DNA from: an uncultured bacterium | Lineage (GTDB): Bacteria > RBG-13-66-14 | Direction: 5' to 3' | Length of the DNA: 64,000 nt | Assembly: GCA_964577465.1 (NCBI GenBank) | Contig: CAZNZF010000001.1 | Location: forward strand, 68,785 to 132,784 | In this document: in pieces, positions 4,841 through 58,640 of the stretch | Layout: every line of letters begins with the position of its first letter | Numbering within the stretch: the first letter of the stretch is position 1 | Program-made: the position numbers and the translations under genes | The notes under the pieces: generated by a model | The model's input: only the letters and a program-made list of their open reading frames with translations | Databases searched by the model: none | What the model was told of the DNA's origin: nothing

Positions 4841-4963
4841 GAAGGGGAGAAACCTCCGCGAAATTGACAGTCGGGATTTTTTCCGCTAGATTGTGTGTGG
4901 ATTGCTGTATTTTGCGACGTAAAGATTTTTGACGTTTTTTATTTCAGACAAAGGAGCCCGTCA

Positions 4964-7486
4964 ATGAAAAAGCTGCTGTCCGCCCTAATCCTCCTGACGC
5001 TCCCCCTGGCGGCGCTGGCCGGGTCCTGGACCGTCATGGTCTGGCTCAACAACCAGAACAGCCTTAAGACCTACGGCTGGGACGACGTCAACGAGATGGA
5101 GGACTGCAACTACAGCGCCTACCCCGACGGGGTGGACGTCATCGTCATGGTTGGATGGGACCCCGACAACCACACCAGGCTATTCCACATCCAGACCGAC
5201 CCCGGCGGTTACTCGGGGGGCGACTACGAGGACATCATCTCCACGGAGATCACGGGTCACGGCATCTGGTCCGGCGACGTGGCCGACATGAACGACCCCC
5301 AGATCTTCGAGAACTTCGTGGAGTGGGTCACCACCAATTATCCCGCCGATAACTTCCTCCTCGACGCCTGGGACCACGGCGGCGGCATCTTCCTGGAGGA
5401 CGAGACCCGGGACTGGATCGACCGCGGGATGTGCAGCGACCTGAAAATCTGGGAGATAGAGGATGCCCTGGAGAACGTCGGGGAGTTCATAGACGTCATC
5501 GGCTTCGACGTTTGCCTGGGCGGGCAGGTCGAGAACGGATACCAGTACCTCGACGACGCCGGCATCTGCATCTGCAGCGAGGAATCGGAACCCGGAGACG
5601 GATGGGATTACCAGGCGTTCAACATCTTCGAGGAGGATTCGAGCGTCACCCCGGAGGAGATTGCCGCCCGCATCGTAGACGATTACCTGGACTTCTACGG
5701 CTCCGGCGTGACCCAGGCCGCCCAGGACGTGAAGAGCTGGCCCGCCGCCATGAACCTGGATTGGGCGGACCTCTGCCAGTCGCTTTTCGACAACTGCTAC
5801 ACCTACAAGGACCGGATAGCCACCGCCCGGAACGCCGCCGACTACTGGAACACGCCGGACGACCGCGACCTGTACCAGTTCGTGGAGGCTCTGGCCGTCG
5901 ACGGCTCCCTGCCCGGCAACCTGCGCACCAAGGCCACGCAATTCACCAGCGACCTCGAGGGTTACATCCTGGCCGGCGGGATGCACAGCACCACCGACTC
6001 AGGCGGCGGGATGGCCATCTACTTCCCCACGAACGGCTCGGACCACCCGAACTGGACCACCTACACCACTCTCGTAAACTTCTCCGACACGCTGTGGGAC
6101 GAATTTTTAGAGATGTACGCCGACCCCTACCCCGTGCAGCCGGTGGCCATCGCCTTTGATTCCGTCGTTTACGACGATTCCGTGGGCGGCAACGGTGACG
6201 GCAAGCTCGACCCCGGCGAGACGGTCAACGCGACCGTGACCCTCAAAAACGACGGCCTAGAAACCGCGACCGGCGTCGCGGCCACCCTCGCCATCGGTGA
6301 CCCCTACTTCACCGTCATGGACGCGTCCGGCGACTTCGGCTCCATCCCCGCCGGCGGGACCGCCTCCGACACGTTCAGATTCAGCATCGGCAGCTTCTGC
6401 CCCGACCACTACCACACCTACGCCAACCTGACCGTTACCGCCGACGGCGACTACTCCACCGAGACCACCTTCGGCATCGTCGTCGGGGTGGGCTTCGAGG
6501 ACGACGTGGAGTCGGGCGGGGACCTCTGGACCCACGGTGGCACCGGCGACCAGTGGCACGTCTCCACCGAGGACGCCCACTCGCCCACCCACTCCTGGAA
6601 GTGCGGCGACACCGACTCCGGCACGTACAGCGGCAACCAGAATTCCTGGATCAAGACCTGCCCCATCTTCGTGGACGCCGATCACGACGAGCTGAGCTTT
6701 TATGTCAGGTACGAGCTGGAAGAGGACTACGACTTCGTTTACCTCGATGTCGCGGAGGGCGGGGGCGCCTGGGTCAAGAAGGACGTCTTCACCGGGACGA
6801 ACCTGGACTGGACCTTGAAGAGGTACGATTTATCCGCCTACACGGGCAACAACATCGAGGTGCGGTTCCGCTTCTCCTCCGACACCAACCTGTCCCTCGA
6901 GGGCTTCTACTTCGACGACATCAGCGTGGCCGAGCAGACCTCGGACATCGGCTCCGTGGCCTTCTCCGGCGAGGCCGTGGACGAGGGAATCCTGCTCTCC
7001 TGGAGGCCGGACAATCCCGCGGAAATTTCAGGGGTGAACGTACTGCGCGAGGAAAAAGACGGCTACGTCCGGCTGAACGAGATTCCAATGACCGGCGGAC
7101 GCTACCTGGACCTCGACGTTTCGCCCGGTTCGAGCCACCTGTACAAGCTGGAGGCGCTGGGCACCGACGGCTCCAGGAGCCTGTTCGGCCCCATCGAGGT
7201 GACCGGCCCGGACGCCGGGGCGCGGGTCACGAGACTGGAACAGTGCTACCCCTGCCCGGCCGGGACCTTCACCACTGTCCCCTTCACCCTGGCCGTCGAC
7301 GGAGCGGTGAGGATTGAGGTCTTCGACCTGGCCGGCCGCCTGGTCCGGACCGTCGCCCGCGGTGAATTCACGGCGGGCCGCCACGAGGTCTTCTGGATGA
7401 CCGACGGCGTCGCCAACGGCGTGTACCTCGTCCGCCTGACGGGCGGAGGGACGACGGCGACGCAGCGGCTGGTCGTATCGCGGTAG
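4964..7486 (+). CDS. secreted clostripain-family (C11) cysteine peptidase with T9SS-type C-terminal sorting domain
   Basis: AAGGAG RBS at 4951; signal peptide MKKLLSALILLTLPLAALA. C11 motifs WTVMVWLNNQN, LLDAWDHGGG (His) and IGFDVCLGG (Cys). The last ~80 aa (RIEVFDLAGRLVRTV...GVYLVRL...RLVVSR) match the Por/T9SS CTD pattern. Confidence 0.8.
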   Translation: MKKLLSALILLTLPLAALAGSWTVMVWLNNQNSLKTYGWDDVNEMEDCNYSAYPDGVDVIVMVGWDPDNHTRLFHIQTDPGGYSGGDYEDIISTEITGHGIWSGDVADMNDPQIFENFVEWVTTNYPADNFLLDAWDHGGGIFLEDETRDWIDRGMCSDLKIWEIEDALENVGEFIDVIGFDVCLGGQVENGYQYLDDAGICICSEESEPGDGWDYQAFNIFEEDSSVTPEEIAARIVDDYLDFYGSGVTQAAQDVKSWPAAMNLDWADLCQSLFDNCYTYKDRIATARNAADYWNTPDDRDLYQFVEALAVDGSLPGNLRTKATQFTSDLEGYILAGGMHSTTDSGGGMAIYFPTNGSDHPNWTTYTTLVNFSDTLWDEFLEMYADPYPVQPVAIAFDSVVYDDSVGGNGDGKLDPGETVNATVTLKNDGLETATGVAATLAIGDPYFTVMDASGDFGSIPAGGTASDTFRFSIGSFCPDHYHTYANLTVTADGDYSTETTFGIVVGVGFEDDVESGGDLWTHGGTGDQWHVSTEDAHSPTHSWKCGDTDSGTYSGNQNSWIKTCPIFVDADHDELSFYVRYELEEDYDFVYLDVAEGGGAWVKKDVFTGTNLDWTLKRYDLSAYTGNNIEVRFRFSSDTNLSLEGFYFDDISVAEQTSDIGSVAFSGEAVDEGILLSWRPDNPAEISGVNVLREEKDGYVRLNEIPMTGGRYLDLDVSPGSSHLYKLEALGTDGSRSLFGPIEVTGPDAGARVTRLEQCYPCPAGTFTTVPFTLAVDGAVRIEVFDLAGRLVRTVARGEFTAGRHEVFWMTDGVANGVYLVRLTGGGTTATQRLVVSR

Positions 7487-12740: not shown

Positions 12741-12909
12741 CCGTGCGTAGCGTCCTGTGCAAAAAAAAGACTGTCGGACCGCCGTTAAAGTGCCGAAAGG
12801 GAGCGGCCCCGCGCCGACCGTTCCCGACAGCCGTACCCCCTTTTGCGAAAACCCGCCCCGCCGAAGCCGGAGGTACCGGAGACGCGGGCCGACCAATCGA
12901 GGAGTAATC

Positions 12910-14793
12910 ATGAGAATCTTCGTCGCGTTACTTCTGGTCTTCGCCGCCGCGGCCCTGGCCGTCACCGAGCCGCCGCCCTGGTTTTACGAGATGCAGCGCG
13001 CCGCCGCCCAGACGCCCCGGGTCGGCCCCGCGCCGCCCGGAACCGACGAGTACGACGTGGGGGACCATCTCCAGCTCTGGAAGTGGAACCTCGCCGGCTA
13101 CCCCACGCAGGACCTCGTGGACTGCACCATCCGCGGCAAGAGCGACCACGGCTACGTCGTGGTGGACGACACGGTCTGGCCGGGCCAGATAAACCAGGCC
13201 GACGTCGACCAGATTCTCGAGAACTGGGAGAACTCCTCGGACGGGCCCCGCCCCGACGACGGCATCTACGACATCGACACCACCACCTTCGGGCCGTGCC
13301 CCGATGAAATCGACGGGGACCCGCGCGTGTTCCTCTTCTACTACGACTTCGACATCTCCGCCGACGGCTTCTTCATGTTCTACGATGAATACCCAGACGG
13401 CACCTACGAGTGGCACTCCAACGAGAGGGAAATCGTCTACCTGAACAGCTCGGGCAGCGACCCCGGCGGGACGTACATGATTGCCGTCGCCGCCCACGAG
13501 TTCGAGCACATGCTCCACTGGTACCAGGACGACAACGAGGACTTGTGGGTGGACGAGGGCTGCGCCGAGCTGGCCATGTTCCTCTTCGGGCACCCCGACA
13601 GCGTCAGCGGCTTCAACGGCCACTCGGACAACGACCTGACGAGCTGGAACGGCGACTGGGCCGACTACATCAAGACCTACCTCTGGACCCTCTACCTCTA
13701 CGAGCACTACGGCGAGGGCTCCGCCGACCCGACGGACCTCATCTGGGAGCTGGTCCACGAGCAGGCCAACTCCATCACCGGGGTGAACAACGCCCTGGAC
13801 ACGGTGGACGCCGGGACCACCTTCGAGGAAATCCTGCCCGACTGGGTCGACGCGAACTTCCTCGACCTGGCCGACGAGGACCTCTTCGACGGGCGGTACA
13901 GCTATTTCGGCGAGGACCTGCCGCTCTTCACCCCCGCCTCCATCCACAACCACTACCCCGCCTCCGGCTCCAACAACCTCTCCCGCTACGCCGGGGAGTA
14001 CGTGCTCTTCGTGGACCCTGGGCGCGGCGGGGAGATGACCGAGTGGCTCTACGGGCAATTCGACGGCCACGACGCCTCCGACTTCACCGTGGACGTCCTG
14101 CGTATCAACTCCGGCGACGAGGCGGACACCGAGGTCGTGCGGCTGGACCTGGACTCGGAGAACCGGTCCACCTTCGACGCGCCGGAATTCCCGTACACCC
14201 ACGACCGGGTGGTGCTCGCCGTGACGAGGCCGACCGCGGCGGGGCCCGGGACCTACGACTACCAGGCCGACGTGAGCGGGACCGGCGTCGGCGACGCCGA
14301 ATTCAGCGCCTCGCGCACCGGGGACGGCGTCCTGGCCGACTGGAGCGTATCCGAGGCGCGGTCGGTCGTTCTGCTGCGGGGGGAGACGACGGTGGTCCGT
14401 CTGGACGACGCCGCGGGCCGCTACCTCGACCGTGAGGCCCCGGACGCCGGCTGCTCTTACATTCTCGAAGTGACGGACATCGCCGGTCGGACGATGCGCC
14501 TGGGGCCGGTGGAGGTGGGACCCGCGGGGGATGAAAACGCGGGGCTCACCCTCAGCGCGCCTTACCCCTCGCCCGCCTCCGAGCGGGTGGCCTTCGATTT
14601 CACCGTCCCCGGCGACGGTGAGGCGCGCCTCTCCGTGTACGACCTCTCCGGTCGGGAGGTGTTCTCCACGGCGGTGGAGCCGGCGGCGGGCCGCGTGGTA
14701 TGGGACGCCTCGGCCGCGGCTCCGGGGGTGTACCTGGCAAGGCTCGTCGGTGAGGGCGGGACGGTATTCCGCCGGCTGGTCATCGCCCGCTGA
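12910..14793 (+). CDS. secreted MA-clan (gluzincin, Peptidase_MA_2-like) zinc metallopeptidase with T9SS-type CTD
   Basis: Signal peptide MRIFVALLLVFAAAALA. HEFEHMLHW...DLWVDEGCAE gives HEXXH plus a downstream Glu. The C-terminus (LSAPYPSPASERVAFDF...LSVYDLSGREV...GVYLARL...RLVIAR) matches the T9SS CTD. Confidence 0.7.
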   Translation: MRIFVALLLVFAAAALAVTEPPPWFYEMQRAAAQTPRVGPAPPGTDEYDVGDHLQLWKWNLAGYPTQDLVDCTIRGKSDHGYVVVDDTVWPGQINQADVDQILENWENSSDGPRPDDGIYDIDTTTFGPCPDEIDGDPRVFLFYYDFDISADGFFMFYDEYPDGTYEWHSNEREIVYLNSSGSDPGGTYMIAVAAHEFEHMLHWYQDDNEDLWVDEGCAELAMFLFGHPDSVSGFNGHSDNDLTSWNGDWADYIKTYLWTLYLYEHYGEGSADPTDLIWELVHEQANSITGVNNALDTVDAGTTFEEILPDWVDANFLDLADEDLFDGRYSYFGEDLPLFTPASIHNHYPASGSNNLSRYAGEYVLFVDPGRGGEMTEWLYGQFDGHDASDFTVDVLRINSGDEADTEVVRLDLDSENRSTFDAPEFPYTHDRVVLAVTRPTAAGPGTYDYQADVSGTGVGDAEFSASRTGDGVLADWSVSEARSVVLLRGETTVVRLDDAAGRYLDREAPDAGCSYILEVTDIAGRTMRLGPVEVGPAGDENAGLTLSAPYPSPASERVAFDFTVPGDGEARLSVYDLSGREVFSTAVEPAAGRVVWDASAAAPGVYLARLVGEGGTVFRRLVIAR

Positions 14794-20031: not shown

Positions 20032-20478
20032 TCAGTGCTTGATGTCCAGCATCTCGATTACGGCATCGGCCCGCTTCACCAGCTCCATCGGCGCCCGGCG
20101 GCCGGTGAGGACCAGTTCCACGGGGAATCCCACCTCGAACACCGTCTCGACGTCCGCGAGCGGGATGAAACCGGCCTCCACCGCGTCCAGGAGCCCGTCC
20201 AGCACCACGAGGTCGTGTCCCCGGGCCTCGCAGAGGTCGAGAGCCGTCCGCCAGCCCTTATCCGCCGAGCTCCGGCCGTCCACGCCGAGGTCGCAGGGAA
20301 AAACGTCGATTCCCAGCCTGACGGCCGACTCGGCCTCCCCGGAAGTTTCCGGTCTGAGAAACCGCACCACCGCCACCCGTCCGCCGGTACCGCGCCGGGT
20401 CATCGCCAGGCCGAAAGCGGCGGTGCTGCCGGTCTCGACCTCGCCGGAATAAATCCTGACCACGCAATTCTTCTCAGC
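20032..20478 (-). CDS. CobO/BtuR-family cob(I)yrinic acid a,c-diamide adenosyltransferase-like protein with degenerate P-loop
   Basis: The C-terminal pattern YDLVVLDG...LVLTGRRAP...ADAVIEMLDIKH matches CobA/CobO. The usual GNGKGKTTAAFG is replaced by GEVETGSTAAFG. Probable GTG start with AGGAG upstream; the track's longer ORF is probably over-extended. Confidence 0.55.
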   Translation of the reverse strand, partial: AEKNCVVRIYSGEVETGSTAAFGLAMTRRGTGGRVAVVRFLRPETSGEAESAVRLGIDVFPCDLGVDGRSSADKGWRTALDLCEARGHDLVVLDGLLDAVEAGFIPLADVETVFEVGFPVELVLTGRRAPMELVKRADAVIEMLDIKH

Positions 20479-20510
20479 CACTCCACGCTCCTTGAAACCG
20501 GATGAAACGG

Positions 20511-22568
20511 TCAGACCTCGTCGTGGTCCTTGGAGGTGATCAACCGGACGAAGAGGGTCACCACCTTGGGATCGTAGCGCGTCCCGGCCTCGGCCTCGAT
20601 CTCGGCCAGAGCGAACCGCGCCGTTTTGGGCTGCTGATAGCGCCGCCCTGAAATCATCGTGTCGTAAGAATCGGCGACCGCCACCAGACGCGCGCCGGTG
20701 TAAACCTCCTCGCCCGCGAGCCCCAGGGGGTAACCCTTCCCGTCCCAGCGCTCGTGATGCTGGCTGACGGTCTTGATGCACTCCTCGTCGAAACCGAGGA
20801 GCTTGAGGATGTCCGCGCCGACCTCGGGGTGCGCCTCCACCTGCCTCTGCTCCTCCTCGGAAAGCTGCACCGTGTCCTGGATGGTGGCGTCGGCCAGGGT
20901 GGCTATCATGCCGACATCGTGCAGAATGGCGCCGTAGACTATCTGGTGGATCTCCTGCCGCGGCAGGTCCATCATCTGCGCGAGCTGGGCCACGTACCGG
21001 CTGACGCGTTCGGAGTGACCGCGGGTGTAGGGATCGCGGGAGTCTATGGCGGCGATGAGGCGGCCGACCGTGTCACGGTCGTGCTTGTGCAGGCGCTGGA
21101 ACAGGCGGGCGTTCTCCAGGTGGACGGACACCTGCTTGGACAGGTTCCAGATGAGGCGCAACTCCTCGGCATCGTAATCCATCTGTCCGACCTTGGGCCC
21201 CAGAGCCAGGACGCCGAGGAACTCGCGCGTGGAAACGAGCCCGCAGACCATCGTCAGGCCCAGCTCGGTGAGCTTCTGCGTCAGGCTCCCCGCGACGTCC
21301 TCGGACAGGGCGTCCAGCGGCAACGGCTTCTTCGCCGACATGAGCTCGTTGCGGACATCCTCGGAGAGAACCTGGGAGTATGTCAGATCGAGCTCGTCGG
21401 TGATGCCCTTGGCCAGCCTGAGGTTCAGGTGGTCGCCCTCCATCAGGAAGACCGCCGTGCGGCTGACCCCGAGCTGCCCGATGACGATGACCAGGAAGGT
21501 GTTCAAAAGCTCGTGAACGGCGTATTGGCCGCTGAAATCATGGGCGGCCTGGAACAGGGTCTTGAGCTCGAGGGTCTTACGGTTGAGCTTCTTGCCCGCC
21601 AGGGTCAGCTCCTCGTCCACCTGCGTCAGCCGCTCCGAGGCGGCCGCCAGCTCACCGACCAGGGGCTCGACAGAGATGTGGTAGAGGATGAACCAGTTGA
21701 GTTGACGGCCCAGAAGGGCGAGGGCTTCGATCTCACCCTCGATGATGGGGCTGGGACCGAAGCAGATGAACGCGTGGAGGCCCTCGCCCGAGCGGATGCG
21801 GTAAATCCCCTGGGTGCCCGCCATCTGCAGCGTCTCGAGCTCCTCCGACGGGGGGAACGAACGGCGCCAGCGGGAGAAGAGGAGGAAGTCGCTCTTCGCG
21901 CCGCGCAGGCGGTCCACGAAATCCCCGTCCACGGGCAGGCGGAAGCCCGGGCCGATGCCGGTCCCCTGGCCCGCGACGACCAGAGGCGCGAAAAAGCCGT
22001 CGCCCGTCTGGTTGAATAGCGCCATCCACGGGATGCCGAAGGAGTCGACGGCGGCGCTGAGCGCCAGCGCGATGGGCTGATCGGTGCTCCTGAGACGGAC
22101 CAGGATGTCCGAGAACTCGAGCACGTCCTTGGGGGTGGCCAGGGAGCGGAGGGGGACCTCGATGGAGGACTCGGGCGCCCGGACCGTAGATTGCACCTCG
22201 GACGTCGTGGGGGTCAGGCGGGTAAAATGGTTCAGGGCCTCTTCTACAGAGTCGTAAATCTTGAAGTAATCCAAGAGGTCCAGGGACTCCAGCACGCGAC
22301 GGATGCGTGGGGGGATATCCGCGAAAACGATGTCGCCGTCCGCGGCCCGGACCTCCTTGGCCACGGAGATGAATGCGCCCACACCCGCGCTCGAGATGAA
22401 CTCGAGCTTCTCGAGGATGAAGACGGTGTTGTACACGCCCTCGCCCAGGCAGACCTCGAAGAGCTTCTGGATGTCCGTCGATCCCTCGATGCCGAGCATG
22501 CCTGCAATTTCGTAGATGCGGACTCCGTCGGGAGTTGCGCGGTTGAGGGTTATAGTTAGCTCGTGCAT
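20511..22568 (-). CDS. STAS - GAF - HD-GYP multidomain protein (predicted c-di-GMP phosphodiesterase with anti-sigma-antagonist-like input domain)
   Basis: N-terminal SpoIIAA-like STAS with the conserved Ser (EFISSAGVGAFI). The central region is GAF-like. C-terminal HD (AILHDVGM) and HHERWDGKGYP (HD-GYP signature). Confidence 0.75.
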   Translation of the reverse strand: MHELTITLNRATPDGVRIYEIAGMLGIEGSTDIQKLFEVCLGEGVYNTVFILEKLEFISSAGVGAFISVAKEVRAADGDIVFADIPPRIRRVLESLDLLDYFKIYDSVEEALNHFTRLTPTTSEVQSTVRAPESSIEVPLRSLATPKDVLEFSDILVRLRSTDQPIALALSAAVDSFGIPWMALFNQTGDGFFAPLVVAGQGTGIGPGFRLPVDGDFVDRLRGAKSDFLLFSRWRRSFPPSEELETLQMAGTQGIYRIRSGEGLHAFICFGPSPIIEGEIEALALLGRQLNWFILYHISVEPLVGELAAASERLTQVDEELTLAGKKLNRKTLELKTLFQAAHDFSGQYAVHELLNTFLVIVIGQLGVSRTAVFLMEGDHLNLRLAKGITDELDLTYSQVLSEDVRNELMSAKKPLPLDALSEDVAGSLTQKLTELGLTMVCGLVSTREFLGVLALGPKVGQMDYDAEELRLIWNLSKQVSVHLENARLFQRLHKHDRDTVGRLIAAIDSRDPYTRGHSERVSRYVAQLAQMMDLPRQEIHQIVYGAILHDVGMIATLADATIQDTVQLSEEEQRQVEAHPEVGADILKLLGFDEECIKTVSQHHERWDGKGYPLGLAGEEVYTGARLVAVADSYDTMISGRRYQQPKTARFALAEIEAEAGTRYDPKVVTLFVRLITSKDHDEV

Positions 22569-22751
22569 GGTCGTGGGTGCCCCATGTTAACGGTAAATCA
22601 AACCTGCACCCTGTAAACGGGCGTACAGGGGGTTAATGTTCCTCAAGGACTATCACGAATCGTGCCAGTTCCCGCGGTGTCGCGTCAAAACGCTGCATCC
22701 GCCACCCGCCGTCGGGATCGAAACCGCAGGGCTGCCGCGGGCCGTGGCTTT

Positions 22752-23192
22752 TCAGGCCTGCTTCGGCGTAGGTCGCGCCTTGAACGCCTTCTTCATCTCC
22801 AGAACGTTCAGGCCGTCCCGGTTGTAGAAGTTGACCTCGTCCATCAGGTTGTGGATCATCCAGAGGCCCAATCCCCCGTCGGTCCCCCGGTCGATGAGCT
22901 CCCACACGTCGGGCGATTCAGCGGGAGGCCGGAAGGGGTGGCCCGAGTCGTAGATGAAGATGACGGCCTCGGATTCGAGGATTTCCAGCTCCACCTCGAT
23001 GTCGCGCTTCGGGGAATCCGCGTAGGCGTGCTCGATGACGTTGGCGCAGCCCTCGTAAACCGCCAGGGTGATGTCGTCGCGCACGGTTCCCGGCAGGCCG
23101 TGCAGGGCGGCTACGCGGCTGACGAACCGCTTGATGCCCGCCAGGGCCTCGAGGTCGGATTTCAACCGGATGCTGTACCTGTTGTGCTTCAT
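22752..23192 (-). CDS. RsbW/SpoIIAB-like anti-sigma regulatory factor (Ser kinase, HATPase_c_2)
   Basis: N-box EHAYAD and G-box DSGHPF...DGGLGLWMIHNLMDEV are typical of RsbW-type kinases. Start chosen at the ATG MKHNRY. Confidence 0.65.
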   Translation of the reverse strand: MKHNRYSIRLKSDLEALAGIKRFVSRVAALHGLPGTVRDDITLAVYEGCANVIEHAYADSPKRDIEVELEILESEAVIFIYDSGHPFRPPAESPDVWELIDRGTDGGLGLWMIHNLMDEVNFYNRDGLNVLEMKKAFKARPTPKQA

Positions 23193-23417
23193 CCCCGCCG
23201 GGTTCACGGGCCCCCGAAACCGTGTTCGGAGGTGAAAACAGGCCCTATCAATAAGCAATGATAGGGTTTGGCGTAAAAAAAGTCAACGCAACCGTTTCGA
23301 AAGACGGTACTCTGCAACGCCTTGAAATACAGAGACTTGACCTTTGACAACACAGGCGCGGAAGGGGCTTTATCCCCCTAAACGGGCTGATGGAGCGGCT
23401 TTTTCCAAATTTTTTTC

Positions 23418-32904: not shown

Positions 32905-33065
32905 GGGAAAAAACCGCCCAGGGCGTTGCACGGTGTGGATTTTAGGTTTATCCCGCCGGTGTGTCAACACGGCCGACATTCGAGGACCCCTCCGCGGCGG
33001 ACACCGATTCATCGGACGGTAACCCCGGCGTGTGCTATACTTGCGGCGACGCACCACCACCCGAT

Positions 33066-34196
33066 ATGTCGAGAAACATCCTCATAGCTCTGACGGTAAT
33101 CTCCTCGCTCGCCGCGGCCGGCGACCTCCGCCCGGACCTCTCGAGCCTGGACGACTATACCTGCCGGGCGGAATTCGACCCGTTCGCGTCCGTGGCGCTC
33201 AAGCCCGACCTCACCAGCCTCGACGATTACCGCGCCCCGGAGGAGTTCCAAATCGAGGCTAAGCTGCGCGGCGAGCCCTCGCCGGGCGAATCCGCCGCGG
33301 TGTGGGAGGAGATAAACCGCGCCCAGGCGGCCGGCGAGTCCCTCCTGCGGCGCGAACCCATCGTCTGGGAGACTCTGGCCGACTACCGGCCCTACGAGAA
33401 GGTGGGGCAGCCGCGCCTGTTGTACGACGTGGCCCGGGCGGACGAATGGGCCGACCCCCGGCGCGAGCGCGGCGAGAGGCCCAAGGTCTCCATCCTGATG
33501 TACCACGACATCCGCGACGCCTCCCGGTACTCCACCGTCATCACCCCCTGGCAGTTCGAGGAGGAGGTGCGCTGGCTGACGGAAGAGGGGTACCTTTTTA
33601 TCACGATAAGCCAATTGCTCGACGCCGTCTACTCCGGCGGCGGAGACCTGCCGCCCCGCTGCGTGGCGCTGACCTTCGACGACGGCTGGAGCGGCGTCTA
33701 CCGTTACGCCTACCCGATTCTAAAGAAATACGGCGCCACGGCCACCCTGTACCTCTACACGAACTACATCGGCGTCGGCGGCCGGTCCAACACCTGGGAC
33801 CAGTACCGGGAGATGCTGGCCAACGGCTTCGAAATCGGCAGCCACACGGTTTCCCACTGCGACCTGACCAACCGGGGCGCGTGGAGCGGCCGGGGCTCCA
33901 AGCCCCCGTCGGGGCAGGGAACCTACACCCAGAGGCTCATGCACGAGCTGACGGACTCCCGGCTCATCCTCGAGGAGCACCTGGGGGTGCCCATCCGGAG
34001 CCTGGCCCTGCCCTACGGCGCCTACGACGACTACGTGCTCAAGAGCGCGCTTCTGGCCGGGTACGAGGGCGTCCTCACCATCAAGGCCGGCAACACCTTT
34101 GTGGACGCCGACACGAACGAAATCGAGCTCCGGCGCTGGAATATCGTCCCGTCCATGGGCCTGGCGACCTTCATCGAACGCCTGGACCGGGAATGA
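33066..34196 (+). CDS. polysaccharide deacetylase (CE4 NodB-homology) family exported protein
   Basis: Signal peptide ILIALTVISSLAAAG. NodB motifs are present (LTFDDGW, GSHTVSHCDL, LALPYG). Confidence 0.7.
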   Translation: MSRNILIALTVISSLAAAGDLRPDLSSLDDYTCRAEFDPFASVALKPDLTSLDDYRAPEEFQIEAKLRGEPSPGESAAVWEEINRAQAAGESLLRREPIVWETLADYRPYEKVGQPRLLYDVARADEWADPRRERGERPKVSILMYHDIRDASRYSTVITPWQFEEEVRWLTEEGYLFITISQLLDAVYSGGGDLPPRCVALTFDDGWSGVYRYAYPILKKYGATATLYLYTNYIGVGGRSNTWDQYREMLANGFEIGSHTVSHCDLTNRGAWSGRGSKPPSGQGTYTQRLMHELTDSRLILEEHLGVPIRSLALPYGAYDDYVLKSALLAGYEGVLTIKAGNTFVDADTNEIELRRWNIVPSMGLATFIERLDRE

Positions 34197-35530
34197 CGGC
34201 GCGATTCGACGCACGCTCGGCGGCCTGGGAGGCGCTCCGAGGCGTGGCCGCCGGGAAGGGGGACGCCGAGCCCCTGCTGCGCGGGTTGCTGGCCGACGCC
34301 GAGTTGCCGTCCGTAGAGCGGCGGCTGGCCTTCGAGCTGACCCTGGGAACCCTGCGCAAGCGGGGTTGTCTCGACTACGGGCTGGAACGGTATCTGACCC
34401 GGCCCCTGAGGGAATTACACCCCGACCTGCGCGAGCTCCTGCGCCTGGGGGCCTACCAGCTCCTGGAGCTGGACCGCGTCCCGGCCTACGCCGCCGTGGA
34501 CCGGACGGTGGAGCTGGCCCGAAAACTGAGCACGACGCGGAAGGCCGCGGGGCTGGTAAACGCCGTCCTGCGGCGATTGAGCGAGGGCCGCCCCGAACCG
34601 CCCGACGCGACCACGGACCCCGTCGGGCATTTGACAGTGACCGGCAGCCACCCCCGCTGGCTGGTGAAGCGGTGGCTGGAGCGCTACGGCATCGAGGAGA
34701 CCGCCCGGCTGTGCGCTGCGGACAACGAGCCGCCCGACACCTTCGTTTTCCTCAATCCCTTCCGGACGGCCGGGGAGGATTTTCGTAAAATCGTCCCGGA
34801 CGCCGAGGCGGTGGAGGGATTCCCCGGCTGCTACCGGCTCGCCCGCGGGGGAGACCTGACCGCGAGCGGGGCATACCTGGAGGGCAAGGTTTACGCCGCC
34901 GATCCCGCGACGGCGCTGGCGGCGACGGCGCTGGACCCCCGACCCGGCGAAATGATTCTGGACGCCTGCTCGGCCCCCGGGGGCAAGCTCTTCCACCTGC
35001 ACCGCCTGGCCGGCGAAGGGTTGAAAACCGTGGCGCTGGAGGTTTCGCCCCGGCGGTGCGCCACCCTCGTCGAAAATTTCCGCCGGCTCGGCCTGCCCGC
35101 GGCGGTGGTCAACGGCGACCTGCTGCTCCCGCCGCTTATTAAAAGCCGATTCGACAAGGTTCTTCTCGACGCGCCCTGCTCCAACACCGGCGTCCTCCGG
35201 CGCCGGGTCGAGGCGCGGTGGCGGCGCAGGCCGGAGGACATCAAGGCCCTGGCGCGCCTGCAGCTCGACCTGCTCACCTCGGCCTGTCGTTTGGTAAAAT
35301 CGGGGGGGCTGGTGGCCTATTCCACCTGCTCCCTGGAACCCGAGGAGAACGAGGGCGTGGTGGAACGGTTTTTGGGCGGACGGGGCGATTTTCAGCACAC
35401 ACCCGCCGTAGTTGGGCTGGATGACGACCTGCGGGAGCGCTTCGGGGATTCCGCGGGCTATGTACGTACCCTGCCGCACAGAAGCGGAACCGACGGAGCC
35501 TTCGTGGCGCTCTTGCGGAGGGTGAGGTAG
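34193..35530 (+). CDS. rsmB: 16S rRNA m5C methyltransferase RsmB/Sun (NusB-like N-domain plus SAM MTase)
   Basis: The N-terminus is NusB-like. MTase motifs are present (ILDACSAPGGK, DKVLLDAPCSNTGV, TCS). The ATG overlaps the upstream stop. Confidence 0.8.
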   Translation: MTARFDARSAAWEALRGVAAGKGDAEPLLRGLLADAELPSVERRLAFELTLGTLRKRGCLDYGLERYLTRPLRELHPDLRELLRLGAYQLLELDRVPAYAAVDRTVELARKLSTTRKAAGLVNAVLRRLSEGRPEPPDATTDPVGHLTVTGSHPRWLVKRWLERYGIEETARLCAADNEPPDTFVFLNPFRTAGEDFRKIVPDAEAVEGFPGCYRLARGGDLTASGAYLEGKVYAADPATALAATALDPRPGEMILDACSAPGGKLFHLHRLAGEGLKTVALEVSPRRCATLVENFRRLGLPAAVVNGDLLLPPLIKSRFDKVLLDAPCSNTGVLRRRVEARWRRRPEDIKALARLQLDLLTSACRLVKSGGLVAYSTCSLEPEENEGVVERFLGGRGDFQHTPAVVGLDDDLRERFGDSAGYVRTLPHRSGTDGAFVALLRRVR

Positions 35531-35545
35531 CCTTTCCGGCGACGG

Positions 35546-36520
35546 ATGGGGTATGATTGGCTGAACAATAGAAACAAGCGGTGGCGGATGAACGACCAGA
35601 AAGACAGCGGAACGGGGTTCGGTCTCGACTCGCAATCCCAGGACCGGCCGAAGTTCGAGGGGTTCGGCTTCGATGAGCCGGCCGGGCAGCCGGCCCCCCT
35701 CACCAAGAAACCGCGGTCCGGGAAACTCGCCCGTCTGAGGACCGTGCTGCTCTACATCGGCCTGGCCGTGGGCGCCCTCGTCGTCGGCATGCTTCTGGCC
35801 AATTTCATCATCATGCCCCTGTTGGTGGGGGGCGAGGAGGTCGAGGTCCCCGACCTGACGAACATGAGCTTCGAGGCGGCGTCCTCCCAGTTGGTCGAAA
35901 TGGGCCTCAACTACGAGAAGGTGGCCGAGGAGTACTCGGCGGACGTGCCGGCCGGGTACGTCGTCAGCCAGCGTCAGGAACCGGGGATGAACGTGCGCCC
36001 GGGCCGCATCATCGAGCTCACCGTCTCCGCCGGTTCCGAGGACGTCCGCATCCCCAACGTGACCAAGATGAGCCAGCGCCAGGCCGAGGACGTCCTGCGC
36101 CGCGCCGGGCTGGTGGTGGGCAAGGTCCGCGAAAGCTACGACCCCAACGTCCCGGAAGGCTCGGTCATCGGCCAGAACCCCGAGCCGGGGCGCGAGGTGC
36201 CGCGCGGAACCAGAATAGACCTCCTCGTCTCGCTGGGCTCCGAGGAGACCACCTTCAAGATGCCGAACCTGGTCGGCGCCGATTACCGCACCGCCGTCAG
36301 CCGCGTCTCCACCTGGGAACTGGTGATGGGGGACACCACCTTCGAATTTTCCTCCAGCATCCCGCCGGGCCACATCATCCGCCAGTCCCCCGAGGTCGGC
36401 GCGACGGTGGTCCGGGGCGACACGGTGACCGTGGTAATAAGCAAGGGCCCGCCCACCGGCGGTGAGACGGTCCCGACGCCCGAGGGTGGCGGGGAAACGC
36501 CGCCGCCGGACACCTTCTGA
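35546..36520 (+). CDS. membrane-anchored protein with three PASTA domains (no kinase or PBP domain)
   Basis: TM helix LLYIGLAVGALVVGMLLANFII is followed by three repeats of the PASTA pattern (VPDLTNMS..., IPNVTKMS..., MPNLVGAD...). Confidence 0.7.
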   Translation: MGYDWLNNRNKRWRMNDQKDSGTGFGLDSQSQDRPKFEGFGFDEPAGQPAPLTKKPRSGKLARLRTVLLYIGLAVGALVVGMLLANFIIMPLLVGGEEVEVPDLTNMSFEAASSQLVEMGLNYEKVAEEYSADVPAGYVVSQRQEPGMNVRPGRIIELTVSAGSEDVRIPNVTKMSQRQAEDVLRRAGLVVGKVRESYDPNVPEGSVIGQNPEPGREVPRGTRIDLLVSLGSEETTFKMPNLVGADYRTAVSRVSTWELVMGDTTFEFSSSIPPGHIIRQSPEVGATVVRGDTVTVVISKGPPTGGETVPTPEGGGETPPPDTF

Positions 36521-42914: not shown

Positions 42915-43044
42915 CGGACGCGGAACCTTGACCGGCGGGCGTTCCCGCTTCACCGAGGGGGTCCATCGGTCCCTGGTACACATCTTGCGTTCAAGGAAGC
43001 GCAACACTTTCCCCATTTAAACCGGTAATCCCCCCGCGAGGAAT

Positions 43045-43905
43045 ATGAAAAACGAAGCGAAGCGAGTTGCGCCCCGGCGAACCGAGCGAAGCGAGCTACG
43101 CCCCCGGCGAAACGTACTCATCATAGACGACGAGGAAGACCTCCTGGAGCCCCTGACCCTGGGCCTCGAGCAGCTCTCGCCGGAGTTCAGCTACACCGCC
43201 ACCTCCGACCCGGTGGAGGGGATGGTGCTGCTCGACCGCAACCCGGTGGACATCCTGGTCACCGACATGATAATGCCCTACGTCACCGGCCTGGACATCA
43301 TCGAGCAGGTCATCAACCATTTCCCACGGACCGCCTGCATCCTGATGACGGCCTACGGCTCGGCGGACATCGAGCTGATTCTGGACGAGTACTCGGTCAA
43401 CTACGTCGAGAAACCGCTGGACCTGGATGTGCTCCACCGGATGATCGTCAGCCTGAGCCGTGAACCCAAGGCCGTCACCGATCTCAGCGTGGTCACCCTT
43501 CCCACCTTCGTCCGGGTGCTGGCGGCGAAGGAGCTGACCTGCCGGGTCGACATCGAGTGCGAGGAGAAGAAGAGGAACGGGACACTGTTCTTCTCGCGGG
43601 GGGAGCTCTTCCACGCCAAGCTCGCCAATCTGTCGCCCGAGGCGGCGGTGGTGGCCATGCTGACCTGCGAAAAGGCGAAGATAACCATCCACCAGCTCAA
43701 GCACCCCTTCCACCGGAAAATCCATCGGAGCCTGGAGGAGATTCTGCACGTAACGTCGGGAGAGGAAGAGGGACCCTTCGCCGCCATCGGCGGTGCGGAT
43801 TCCCCCGACCAGACCGAAAACGGCTACGCCAACACCCAGGACCTCATCGGGCTGCTTTCTGCGGGCGTCACCCTGCGCTACAACCTGCTCCAACGGAAGG
43901 GATGA
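43045..43905 (+). CDS. response-regulator receiver domain protein with C-terminal DUF4388-like domain
   Basis: REC motifs are present (VLIIDDEED, ILVTDMIMP, ILMTAYGS). The first ~22 codons are encoded by the 33-nt repeat, so the true start is uncertain. Confidence 0.65.
   Translation: MKNEAKRVAPRRTERSELRPRRNVLIIDDEEDLLEPLTLGLEQLSPEFSYTATSDPVEGMVLLDRNPVDILVTDMIMPYVTGLDIIEQVINHFPRTACILMTAYGSADIELILDEYSVNYVEKPLDLDVLHRMIVSLSREPKAVTDLSVVTLPTFVRVLAAKELTCRVDIECEEKKRNGTLFFSRGELFHAKLANLSPEAAVVAMLTCEKAKITIHQLKHPFHRKIHRSLEEILHVTSGEEEGPFAAIGGADSPDQTENGYANTQDLIGLLSAGVTLRYNLLQRKG
43053..43113 (+). repeat. 1.8 tandem copies of 33-nt element (CGAAGCGAAGCGAGTTGCGCCCCGGCGA + ACCGAGCGAAGCGAGCTACGCCCCCGGCGAAAC)
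   Basis: Direct read. It matches the elements at 1072, 36541, 50667 (rc) and 51863 (rc). Confidence 0.7.
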
Positions 43906-43956
43906 GACCGGTCCAGACGCGAAAAAGGAACGCCCGGCGGCGTTCCCATCAATAAA

Positions 43957-43980
43957 GGCAAGGGGCTTAAGCCCCTTGTC
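43957..43980. repeat. palindromic element GGCAAGGGGCTTAAGCCCCTTGTC (bidirectional terminator-like)
   Basis: Perfect palindrome between the convergent RR gene and rpoD. Confidence 0.65.
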
Positions 43981-43993
43981 TATTTATTTCGGG

Positions 43994-45820
<1,827 letters not shown>

Positions 45821-46164
45821 ACCGAACCGGTTGCCGTATCTTCAAGAGCGGGCAATGATAAGAAAATACCTGTAGCGAAACAAGGGGGATTTCCGGGGGG
45901 TTATCGGGGATTGTGAAAGTAATAACTCGCGGAAGATAAATAAGTTACATTTTATTTTGCGACCCGCACCACTAAAAAAGCCGCATTTTTTACTCACGGT
46001 AAGTATAGCCGGAGTCGAACTTAAATTCCAAGGAATCCCCCGACGTTAACCCTTTTAAGTCAACGAGATGACGTTAAAATGACACGGCAGCGGCCGGGAG
46101 GGCCCGACCGAATTGCGTAATGCTATGTAATTATACGACTTCTACTGACGCAAAATCCGCGCGT

Positions 46165-52087: not shown

Positions 52088-52795
52088 TCAGCTCCGCAGA
52101 AGGTTTAACAGCCGGTTCAGCTTCCTATCCCGGGAGAGCTTGCGGTGGTTGAATTTCCACGCGTACTCGGCGAGGTACAGGGGGAGACGGTTGTAGCGGA
52201 TTCCGCCCCTCCCGACCAGGTTTTCCTTGAGGTAGGACCAGAAGCTCGTGAGCAGTTCAATTTGACCTTCTGCTCCAATTTGACACACTTCATTCACACA
52301 CCCCTCTTCGGATTCGCCCTTGGGCAGCCACCGCACGATGGACAGGGAGACGGGCTCCGACTTCATTTTCGACAACAGGAGCGACCGGCCCTCGGCGGGC
52401 AGCGCCGTTGCGTAGACCGTTTTACCCTGTACTATTAAAATATAGAGAGGCCGTTTACGCGTATTTTCCAACGGAAAAGCACTTGAAACGCTTTCAAGGG
52501 CTTCTTCCGTATGCCTCGTTAAAATACCTTGTTGGGATTCCGTTATCGCCCGGCGGAGAACCTGTAGTGACCTCAATACACGGCGTCTTTCTATATGCGT
52601 TTCAGTCGCAATATAATTACTGCTATTGTCATTGATAAACTGTCGAATAATCGCCTCCCACTGCTCCGTGCGCAACCTGAGCGGAAGCTGATCCGGCTTC
52701 CACTCGTACCGACAGGCGCTGCACATGAGCTTGTCCCGGCGTACGCGGTACAGTTTAGAGTTTCCGCACCTGGGGCATATACTATTGGAAATCAT
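52088..52795 (-). mobile_element. IS1595-family-like transposase ORF (probably truncated or degenerate) in a lower-GC island
   Basis: N-terminal zinc ribbon CPRCGNSKLYRVRRDKLMCSACRY. The C-terminal LYLAEYAWKFNHRK resembles the conserved IS1595 tail, but the middle is too short for a full DDE domain. Local GC is visibly lower than in the flanks. Confidence 0.5.
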
Positions 52796-52973
52796 AGCGA
52801 TATGGGTGGCTGAACTGGAACTATGTCAATATGATACGCATAACTGGGCACAGATTCCGAATGTTATATTAGTATGACCCCGGTGTCAACTATTGTCTGC
52901 ACCTCTTGACAACGAGGACGCCCGCTGGTAGTTTTTACGGCTTGCTAAGTGCAACTTGTATACCAGAGGCCGG

Positions 52974-58455: not shown

Positions 58456-58640
58456 GGGCTGGAAAGCCTGCGCGAAGCGGGATATAATTAAGAGTGTACA
58501 GAATCGCGTTCCAATCGCGGTTCGATCAAACCTCTGTCCGTAAGACCCGTGGCGGATTTCTCTTGCCAAGGGGGATTATTTGTATTAAATAATCCTGTGG
58601 CAGGGTCGAGTTTTCCAACGCCGACGAAAAAGGGGGCCCC

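Follow-up and report, generated by a model that had tools for sequence, protein, structure and literature searches.

A partner-switch kinase gene adjoining a gene for a STAS–GAF–GAF–HD-GYP protein in an uncultured bacterium: a candidate phosphorylation-gated module of cyclic-dinucleotide phosphodiesterase type

The DNA analyzed here is a window of 64,000 nucleotides (nt) from an uncultured bacterium (contig CAZNZF010000001.1, positions 68,785 to 132,784), with a GC content of ∼66%. At positions 20032-23192 of this window, three consecutive genes, all on the minus strand, encode an RsbW/SpoIIAB-type serine kinase, a 685-residue protein with the domain order STAS–GAF–GAF–HD-GYP (20511-22568), and a CobO-like protein. 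The arrangement formed by the kinase and the STAS–GAF–GAF–HD-GYP protein is confirmed as real and not the product of chance. Its reading as a partner switch is well supported by sequence comparisons and is strengthened by operons of distant relatives in which a phosphatase gene completes a triad. We consider it rather probable that the pair forms a phosphorylation module, derived from partner switches, that is wired in cis to a domain of the cyclic-dinucleotide phosphodiesterase type, the substrate being left open.

The kinase consists of a full-length HATPase_c_2 domain (PF13581) (Table 1), and the nearest solved structure is that of B. subtilis RsbW (6m36, E = 3.6e-13). The N box (E47, N51, H55), the G1 box (D82-x-G84-xx-F87), and the G2 box (G106-G107-x-G109-L110) are intact and invariant across five orthologues. 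The assignment to the RsbW/SpoIIAB type, made in the initial annotation from the letters of the DNA, thus survives alignment. The scores lie below the cut-offs of the curated equivalog models in NCBIfam (64 and 58 bits vs. 145 and 155 for RsbW, 29 vs. 135 for SpoIIAB). At the codon level, the ratio of nonsynonymous to synonymous substitution rates (dN/dS) is 0.17 in the comparison with the related context L010 and 0.46 in that with L003, indicating purifying selection.

At the N-terminus of the 685-residue protein, Pfam STAS (PF01740) matches residues 11-111 (E = 1.2e-14, 54.4 bits for a cut-off of 22.6), and Foldseek aligns the fold with SpoIIAA (1th8_B) with a TM-score of 0.88 and a root-mean-square deviation of 1.7 Å. 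There is no Response_reg match in this region; the domain is a STAS and not a REC. The serine motif reads F57-I-S-S60-A-G-V-G ("ISSA" is encoded at 22386-22397 and the S60 codon occupies 22389-22391, minus strand). In the HMMER alignment, S60 stands opposite Ser58 of B. subtilis SpoIIAA (FISSAGVG vs. FMDSSGLG) and opposite the serine of the DSAG motif of TM1442, which places it at the position of the phospho-acceptor. The preceding residue is a serine in place of the Asp of D-S-S/T-G. F[IV]SSAG is invariant in the full-length family members checked (14 out of 14, with both subfamilies represented), and the STAS segment has the lowest dN/dS of the protein (0.09-0.12). The proposal of an N-terminal STAS with a phosphorylatable serine in ISSAGVG is therefore borne out. 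A six-frame hidden Markov model (HMM) search found no second STAS or kinase gene elsewhere in the window.

The STAS was initially thought to be fused to the HD-GYP domain through one GAF domain; the fusion is as proposed, with two GAF domains. In the AlphaFold2 model of the protein, built on 22 homologues, the segments are the STAS (1-118), a disordered linker (119-143), a GAF-like domain A (146-298), a helical connector (∼300-366), a GAF domain B (to ∼492), and the HD-GYP domain (498-681). Domain A is silent in Pfam in the window protein. It has an alpha/beta topology of GAF type in the model, and GAF or GAF_2 matches fall in the same region of the homologues P0038, P0040, and P0044. Foldseek pairs the GAF region with the GAF-A/GAF-B tandem of PDE2A (1mc0). 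For domain B, Pfam GAF_3 covers residues 353-486 (E = 1.2e-5) with 26.2 bits, slightly short of the cut-off of 27, and is stronger in homologues. Pfam HD_5/HD covers residues 505-669 (E = 1e-33), and the Foldseek matches of this domain include PmGH, PA4781, and DvhD, with TM-scores of 0.74-0.81 (0.74-0.75 for PA4781). The model, the Foldseek matches, and the Pfam matches of the homologues together establish the architecture STAS–GAF–GAF–HD-GYP. In codon comparisons with L010 and L003, all domains are under purifying selection (dN/dS of 0.09-0.38; 0.15-0.16 for HD-GYP), with relaxed selection in the linker only.

A word-indexed search of 5.8 billion proteins returned only 13 full-length homologues (48-100% identity), and a full-length homologue occurs in one of 185,579 GTDB species representatives. 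A HMMER search with a STAS-domain profile, run exhaustively against 1.84 billion cluster representatives, added six 50%-identity clusters of the same length and with an N-terminal STAS; Pfam confirms STAS–GAF–GAF–HD_5 in all six. With ∼seven 50%-identity clusters in total, the family is thus rare, and it is confined to poorly known lineages with sorting-tail proteins of the type IX secretion system (T9SS).

In the window clade (contexts L001, L003, L004, L007, L009, and L010), the kinase gene always directly precedes the STAS–HD-GYP gene, with an overlap of 4 nt in L004 and gaps of 11 nt in L001 and 20 nt in L009. A divergent HU gene is found upstream wherever the contig reaches that far, and a GH3 gene and a CobO-like gene follow in most of these contexts, not in L001. 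In the distant subfamily, four members from separate 50%-identity clusters (P0037, P0038, P0039, and P0044) share one seven-gene order: a small FlgD-Ig-like protein, a TPR protein, an sCache_3_2/HAMP–SpoIIE phosphatase, a HATPase_c_2 kinase, the STAS–GAF–GAF–HD-GYP protein, a TPR protein, and a polysaccharide deacetylase (triad operons). The SpoIIE E-values range there from 1e-42 to 1.5e-50. For one of the four (P0038), the source is a complete genome of 2.35 Mb under the label Candidatus Coatesbacteria, with a GC content (∼65%) like that of the window. The kinases of both subfamilies are homologous (30-36% identity to the window kinase). The kinase/STAS–HD-GYP pair is kept in all nine kinase-linked lineages examined, down to identities of ∼29% for the HD-GYP protein and ∼30% for the kinase. 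The pairwise identities of the two proteins are correlated, with r ≈ 0.8, a value to which shared phylogeny contributes. Of the two genome-level checks suggested with the initial annotation, conservation of the gene set thus holds for the pair, and a cognate PP2C phosphatase adjoins the kinase in four distant relatives and is found neither in the window nor in the flanks of its clade.

Two side observations belong here. The window contains, at 32946-34193 on the plus strand, a polysaccharide deacetylase gene whose product shares 35% identity (E = 2e-44) with the deacetylase at 7665-8801 of L092; a deacetylase of this type stands two genes downstream from the STAS–HD-GYP gene in the operons of Coatesbacteria type. 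The likeness suggests that the module was ancestrally linked to the modification of exopolysaccharides and that rearrangement has broken this link in the window. Among P0042-P0060 of the STAS-profile search, many large proteins have three tandem STAS domains, and others have STAS fused to TPR repeats. P0058 has three STAS domains fused to a HATPase_c_2 kinase, and P0033 (790 residues) combines a STAS with a degenerate HD-GYP (HD replaced by RD) in which the phospho-serine is also gone.

In the mechanism proposed, the 146-residue kinase would bind the N-terminal STAS of the 685-residue protein and phosphorylate S60, and a PP2C phosphatase would remove the phosphate; in relatives, this would be the membrane Cache/HAMP sensor encoded directly upstream of the kinase. 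The phosphorylation state, the docking of the kinase, or both would be relayed through the GAF–helix–GAF segment to the HD-GYP domain, and the GAF domains may add an input from small molecules. The STAS would take the role of the REC in RpfG/RpfX-type regulators, with the kinase and the phosphatase in place of the histidine kinase. We infer the phosphorylation, its sign (activating or inhibiting), and the substrate, for which cyclic di-GMP (c-di-GMP) is the family default.

Several points weigh against this mechanism. In the window, no PP2C is found, as the initial annotation had said: Both the Pfam scans (∼45 of the 49 called open reading frames [ORFs] and four re-picked frames) and a six-frame HMM search with the HAMP–SpoIIE profile of the relatives came out empty. 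There is none in the flanks of the window-clade relatives. The same profile matched thousands among 5.8 billion proteins, and none of the 120 matches listed is tied to contigs of the window clade. In addition, the homologue P0036 has no adjacent kinase (the context was looked up for five of the six further clusters, all except P0040). The AlphaFold2 model is of medium confidence, with a mean predicted local distance difference test (pLDDT) score of 73.5 and a predicted TM-score of 0.38, so that the geometry between domains is not fixed. The direction in which information flows is not fixed by these data either.

The spacer between the kinase and STAS genes raises a further point. The kinase gene had been described as lying immediately upstream on the same strand; the strand is right, and 183 nt separate the two genes. 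In the window, L007, L010, and L003, which form the subclade with a spacer expanded to 183-228 nt, and only there, the spacer keeps a conserved block (TGGCACGATTCGTG at 22654-22667, minus strand; consensus TGGCACG-N-TT-N-GTG(A)ATAG). This long spacer with a conserved motif of its own means that co-transcription is not assured. The block has a perfect −24 element and a non-canonical −12 element of sigma-54 type, and could thus be an internal promoter or an operator. The spacer also contains a 7-bp hairpin (22609-22630), and its comparison with Rfam (riboswitches and known RNAs) gave nothing at E ≤ 1.

The other points on that side concern the HD-GYP active site. The seven ligands of the binuclear metal site (H518, H550, D551, H580, H604, H605, and D633) are intact and invariant, and so are D512, D636, and the tyrosine of the GYP motif (Y613). 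The domain is clearly under selection and metal-binding in design. The third-metal ligand (E185 in PmGH), a mark of the trinuclear class that hydrolyzes its substrate through to GMP, is replaced by Tyr514, within PYTRGHSERV as in V-cGAP3; on sequence, the domain belongs to the binuclear class, which does not speak against membership in the family. The lysine of HDxGK is replaced by Met554 (codon 20907-20909; "DVGMI" by translation) in every member of the window clade. That lysine is kept in 80 of 82 other HD-GYP domains from the GTDB loci fetched. In PmGH, the substitution K225A abolishes activity, and K225 and D183 have been proposed as a catalytic pair (PMC4159591). Members of the distant subfamily have K (P0036 and P0044), R (P0037), or Y (P0038-P0040) at this position; the canonical HDIGK in the ancestral-looking P0036 and P0044 implies that the family began as a normal enzyme and that the residue has drifted since. 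The lid reads ATLADATIQDTV / ATLADATIQDTVQL where G[IV]P[DE]xILxKPGxL is usual, with the KPG motif replaced by DTV. The proline of GYP is lost in close homologues (GYT or GYS in P0004 and P0005). The motif RxxK (RxY[K/R]), which recognizes guanine and confers specificity for c-di-GMP, reads R642-R-Y-Q645 in the window protein, and its last position is R in P0012 and the distant subfamily and L in P0013.

Variants RxxQ and RxxN are linked to a preference for 3′3′-cyclic GMP-AMP (3′3′-cGAMP) in a preprint (10.1101/2021.11.05.467447). The loss of the HDxGK lysine and the presence of RxxQ make hydrolysis of c-di-GMP not secure for the window clade. From the initial proposal of a phosphodiesterase hydrolyzing c-di-GMP, the HD-GYP domain stands, with metal ligands intact, and c-di-GMP hydrolysis as the output becomes doubtful. 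3′3′-cGAMP, another nucleotide, and weak or no hydrolysis appear to be real alternatives. The label calls for a softer wording: an HD-GYP domain of the cyclic-dinucleotide hydrolase type whose active site is atypical. The HD-GYP domain matches V-cGAP3 (top), PmGH, and PA4781 in the PDB by sequence; V-cGAP3 was rejected as a pointer to a cGAMP substrate, for it has the canonical RxxR.

A classical partner switch with the flow reversed is a possible reading that we hold to be unlikely. The 685-residue protein would then be an oversized anti-anti-factor, with GAF and HD-GYP domains sensing a ligand (e.g., a cyclic dinucleotide that is bound and scarcely turned over, if at all); the ligand would determine if the STAS is able to sequester the kinase, and the output would be the release of the kinase's other partner (a sigma factor, or a different protein with its gene elsewhere) instead of nucleotide hydrolysis. 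The missing lysine at the position where K225A inactivates PmGH (PMC4159591) and the divergence of the substrate-contact motifs would fit, as would the kinase, whose size and boxes are those of true anti-sigma factors. Moreover, in canonical systems the unphosphorylated STAS sequesters the kinase (PMC8256260), and an HD-GYP domain can be a pure c-di-GMP receptor, as in DvhD (PMC13090378). A non-catalytic receptor of that kind was weighed for the window protein; however, DvhD lacks both HD and HH, whereas the window protein keeps them, with all seven ligands invariant. The canonical HDIGK of P0036 and P0044 also speaks for a normal enzyme at the start of the family, and input domains are usually found at the N-terminus, where the STAS lies. 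Finally, no partner gene accompanies the module: No gene for a sigma factor or other partner is conserved near it in ten contexts, and no sigma-factor gene adjoins it in the window or in these contexts (one ECF sigma factor is 3.8 kb from the module, in L096 only). The only sigma factor of the window is a full-length housekeeping RpoD (43997-45841, adjoining dnaG), ∼21 kb from the module; the initial claim that the window contains no sigma factor is thus correct for alternative or linked ones and not for RpoD.

We also assign a low probability to a re-purposing of the HD-GYP domain in the window clade. The domain would be either a phosphorylation-gated hydrolase specific for 3′3′-cGAMP or for another substrate that is not c-di-GMP, or a metal-containing sensor of cyclic dinucleotides that titrates the kinase away from a partner through the STAS. 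This reading follows from the loss of the lysine, the remodelled lid, the change from RxxK to RxxQ, and the lack of an adjacent phosphatase, unlike in the four distant relatives. With the sensor option, the module would be a partner switch controlled by a second messenger.

It is quite improbable that the kinase acts chiefly as a stoichiometric binder, with the kinase dimer switching the HD-GYP domain on or off directly as it docks onto the STAS (e.g., through a change in dimerization) and phosphorylation serving only to free the kinase. Complex formation and phosphorylation are indeed coupled in a single SpoIIAB/SpoIIAA or RsbW/RsbV cycle (PMC8256260). In addition, according to one article (PMC8457831), SiaC–SiaD and HsbA–HsbD act through the binding of an unphosphorylated STAS-type protein to the enzyme, and the window clade has no adjacent phosphatase in the window and flanks searched. 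But conservation of the kinase's ATP-binding boxes is strict, and the operon of four relatives includes a dedicated phosphatase, which speaks for the phosphorylation state itself as the carrier of the signal. An adjacency without functional meaning, in which the kinase would serve a STAS protein elsewhere and the fused STAS would be a structural or dimerization module, is strongly disfavored and hardly credible: The spacer with its separate conserved motif and the absence of an adjacent kinase in P0036 would allow it, but the pair is kept in nine lineages, with overlapping genes in L004 and correlated divergence of both proteins, the phospho-serine motif is invariant, and the window contains no further STAS or kinase gene.

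The partner-switch module in cis resembles several known systems. With RsbW–RsbV–RsbU and SpoIIAB–SpoIIAA–SpoIIE, it shares the HATPase_c_2 kinase with N, G1, and G2 boxes and the STAS serine at the position of SpoIIAA Ser58. As in RsbU/SpoIIE-type systems, a SpoIIE/PP2C phosphatase adjoins the kinase in relatives, with the same order phosphatase–kinase–STAS. In contrast to RsbV and SpoIIAA (free proteins of ∼110 residues), the STAS constitutes here residues 1-118 of a 685-residue protein of enzyme type; there is also no linked sigma factor, no phosphatase gene in the window, and a kinase below the equivalog cut-offs. In Anabaena All4160, an N-terminal STAS is fused to a glycosyltransferase, the kinases Alr3423 and All2284 phosphorylate the STAS, and HenR, of PP2C type, reverses it (bioRxiv 10.64898/2026.04.08.717354). 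There too, a STAS lies in cis with an enzyme, which is regulated directly instead of a sigma factor; here, the output domain is an HD-GYP after two GAF domains, the kinase adjoins its presumed substrate, and the phylum is another one. CapK phosphorylates the STAS-like effector CapS, again with no sigma factor (PMC13373217). Membership of the window module in a CapK/CapS-like defense system was considered and rejected: PADLOC gave no meaningful match, the sole one being weak, of the HD region to Cas10.

RpfG and RpfX (REC–HD-GYP and REC–GAF/PAS–HD-GYP) have a similar layout: a phospho-acceptor at the N-terminus and an HD-GYP at the C-terminus, with GAF or PAS domains between them in some cases. 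In REC–HD-GYP proteins, the phosphodiesterase activity is reported to depend on whether the N-terminal domain is phosphorylated (preprint 10.1101/2021.11.05.467447). A STAS serine replaces here the REC aspartate, and an RsbW-type serine kinase with a PP2C replaces the histidine kinase. In the SiaABCD and HsbR–HsbA–HsbD systems of Pseudomonas, control of diguanylate cyclases is exerted in trans by a PP2C together with a kinase resembling RsbW and a small phospho-protein, and similar arrangements of partner switches with c-di-GMP enzymes have been predicted for Campylobacterota. Here, in contrast, the STAS is covalently fused to an enzyme of the HD-GYP hydrolase type. With PmGH, PA4781, and V-cGAP3, the HD-GYP domain has in common HD, H, HHExxDGxGYP, and D...D, and with V-cGAP3 the binuclear N-terminal loop PYTxGHSERV; it differs from them by Met in place of the HDxGK lysine, an altered lid, and RxxQ instead of RxxK. 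The layout also resembles the order GAF-A/GAF-B–catalytic domain of eukaryotic PDE2, PDE5, and PDE6. Full-text literature searches gave no description of a STAS–HD-GYP fusion, and "STAS" is absent from the main text of a survey of HD-GYP architectures (10.1101/2021.11.05.467447). A fusion of STAS to an enzyme (All4160) and partner-switch control of c-di-GMP enzymes in trans are already known; the module is rare and not unprecedented.

If the proposed mechanism is right, HD-GYP cyclic-dinucleotide enzymes would join the short list of non-sigma outputs under the direct control of a partner switch, and the STAS would be a serine-phosphorylated "receiver," interchangeable with REC in the REC–GAF–HD-GYP layout. 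In the triad operons, the phosphatase has a periplasmic Cache sensor and a polysaccharide deacetylase gene stands downstream; these operons would offer a complete and testable route by which a signal from outside the cell leads to the turnover of a second messenger, in a candidate lineage that has hardly been studied. At a residue described as essential in PmGH, the family provides a natural K-to-M/Y/R series that is ready-made for probing the role of the lysine in HD-GYP catalysis. The module is tidy and testable, and it does not overturn current understanding.

The coordinates of the features are collected in Table 1. For the kinase gene, the ATG at 23192 is the preferred start, and the ORF is open back to a TTG at 23258; gene calling performed independently on a metagenome contig of identical sequence arrived at the same ATG.

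Table 1. Features of the kinase/STAS–GAF–GAF–HD-GYP locus (window positions)
Feature	Positions	Strand	Basis or remark
Candidate sigma-70-like promoter, TTGACT-17-TATCAT	23258..23286	-	5′ of kinase gene; 10/12 consensus positions; consensus match alone, no functional evidence
RsbW/SpoIIAB-type serine kinase (HATPase_c_2), 146 residues	22752..23192	-	Pfam PF13581, E = 3.8e-27
Kinase–STAS spacer, 183 nt	22569..22751	-	Conserved block and hairpin inside; may hold an internal promoter
STAS, residues 1-118, putative phospho-acceptor Ser60	22215..22568	-	Pfam STAS, 54.4 bits; Foldseek
GAF-like domain A, residues 146-298	21675..22133	-	AlphaFold2 topology; Foldseek; Pfam matches of homologues
Long helical connector, residues 299-366	21471..21674	-	Continuous helix in AlphaFold2 model, low pLDDT
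GAF domain B, residues 367-492	21093..21470	-	Pfam GAF_3; AlphaFold2 model
HD-GYP, residues 498-681	20526..21077	-	HD_5, E = 1e-33; fold matches
CobO/CobA/BtuR-like gene, 149 residues	20032..20481	-	PF02572, E = 4.9e-24

The third gene starts with a GTG at 20481, behind an AAGGAG motif and 29 nt past the stop of the STAS–HD-GYP gene; its CobO-like nature is as initially described, the distance having been put at within 33 nt. A CobO-like gene follows the HD-GYP gene in L003, L004, L007, and L009, and in neither L001 nor the triad operons. The P-loop is decayed in the window (SGEVETGST) and in L003 (AGEAGTASG), where the orthologues of L004 and L009 and Salmonella CobA have GKGKTT. An internal segment and the tail at the C-terminus are missing from the protein, which scores below the NCBIfam cut-offs; its dN/dS (∼0.27) still corresponds to purifying selection. 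By its sequence, the protein has probably ceased to act as an ATP:corrinoid adenosyltransferase. As a part of the module, the gene was rejected because of its absence from L001 and all triad operons and the decayed P-loop.

Elsewhere in the window, a gene for a response regulator of the REC–DUF4388 (PATAN) type stands head-to-tail with the rpoD–dnaG pair (43021-45841). An ORF for an RsmB-type 16S rRNA methyltransferase (34196-35527, plus strand) and one with three PASTA domains (35531-36517, plus strand) are in one frame with a single stop between them; the PASTA protein has neither a kinase domain nor a penicillin-binding protein domain. The ORF at 52091-52825 (minus strand) has a GC content at third codon positions of 0.63, compared with ∼0.88 elsewhere, and contains the zinc ribbon of an IS1595-type transposase; the 2 kb around it are the GC minimum of the window (0.59), and it is probably horizontally acquired or a remnant derived from an insertion sequence. 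T9SS C-terminal sorting domains (Por_Secre_tail), which point to a lineage akin to the FCB superphylum, occur on three large secreted proteins (4868-7483, 12751-14790, and 58593-61211, plus strand), two of which are peptidases, one C11 clostripain-like and the other C25 gingipain-like.

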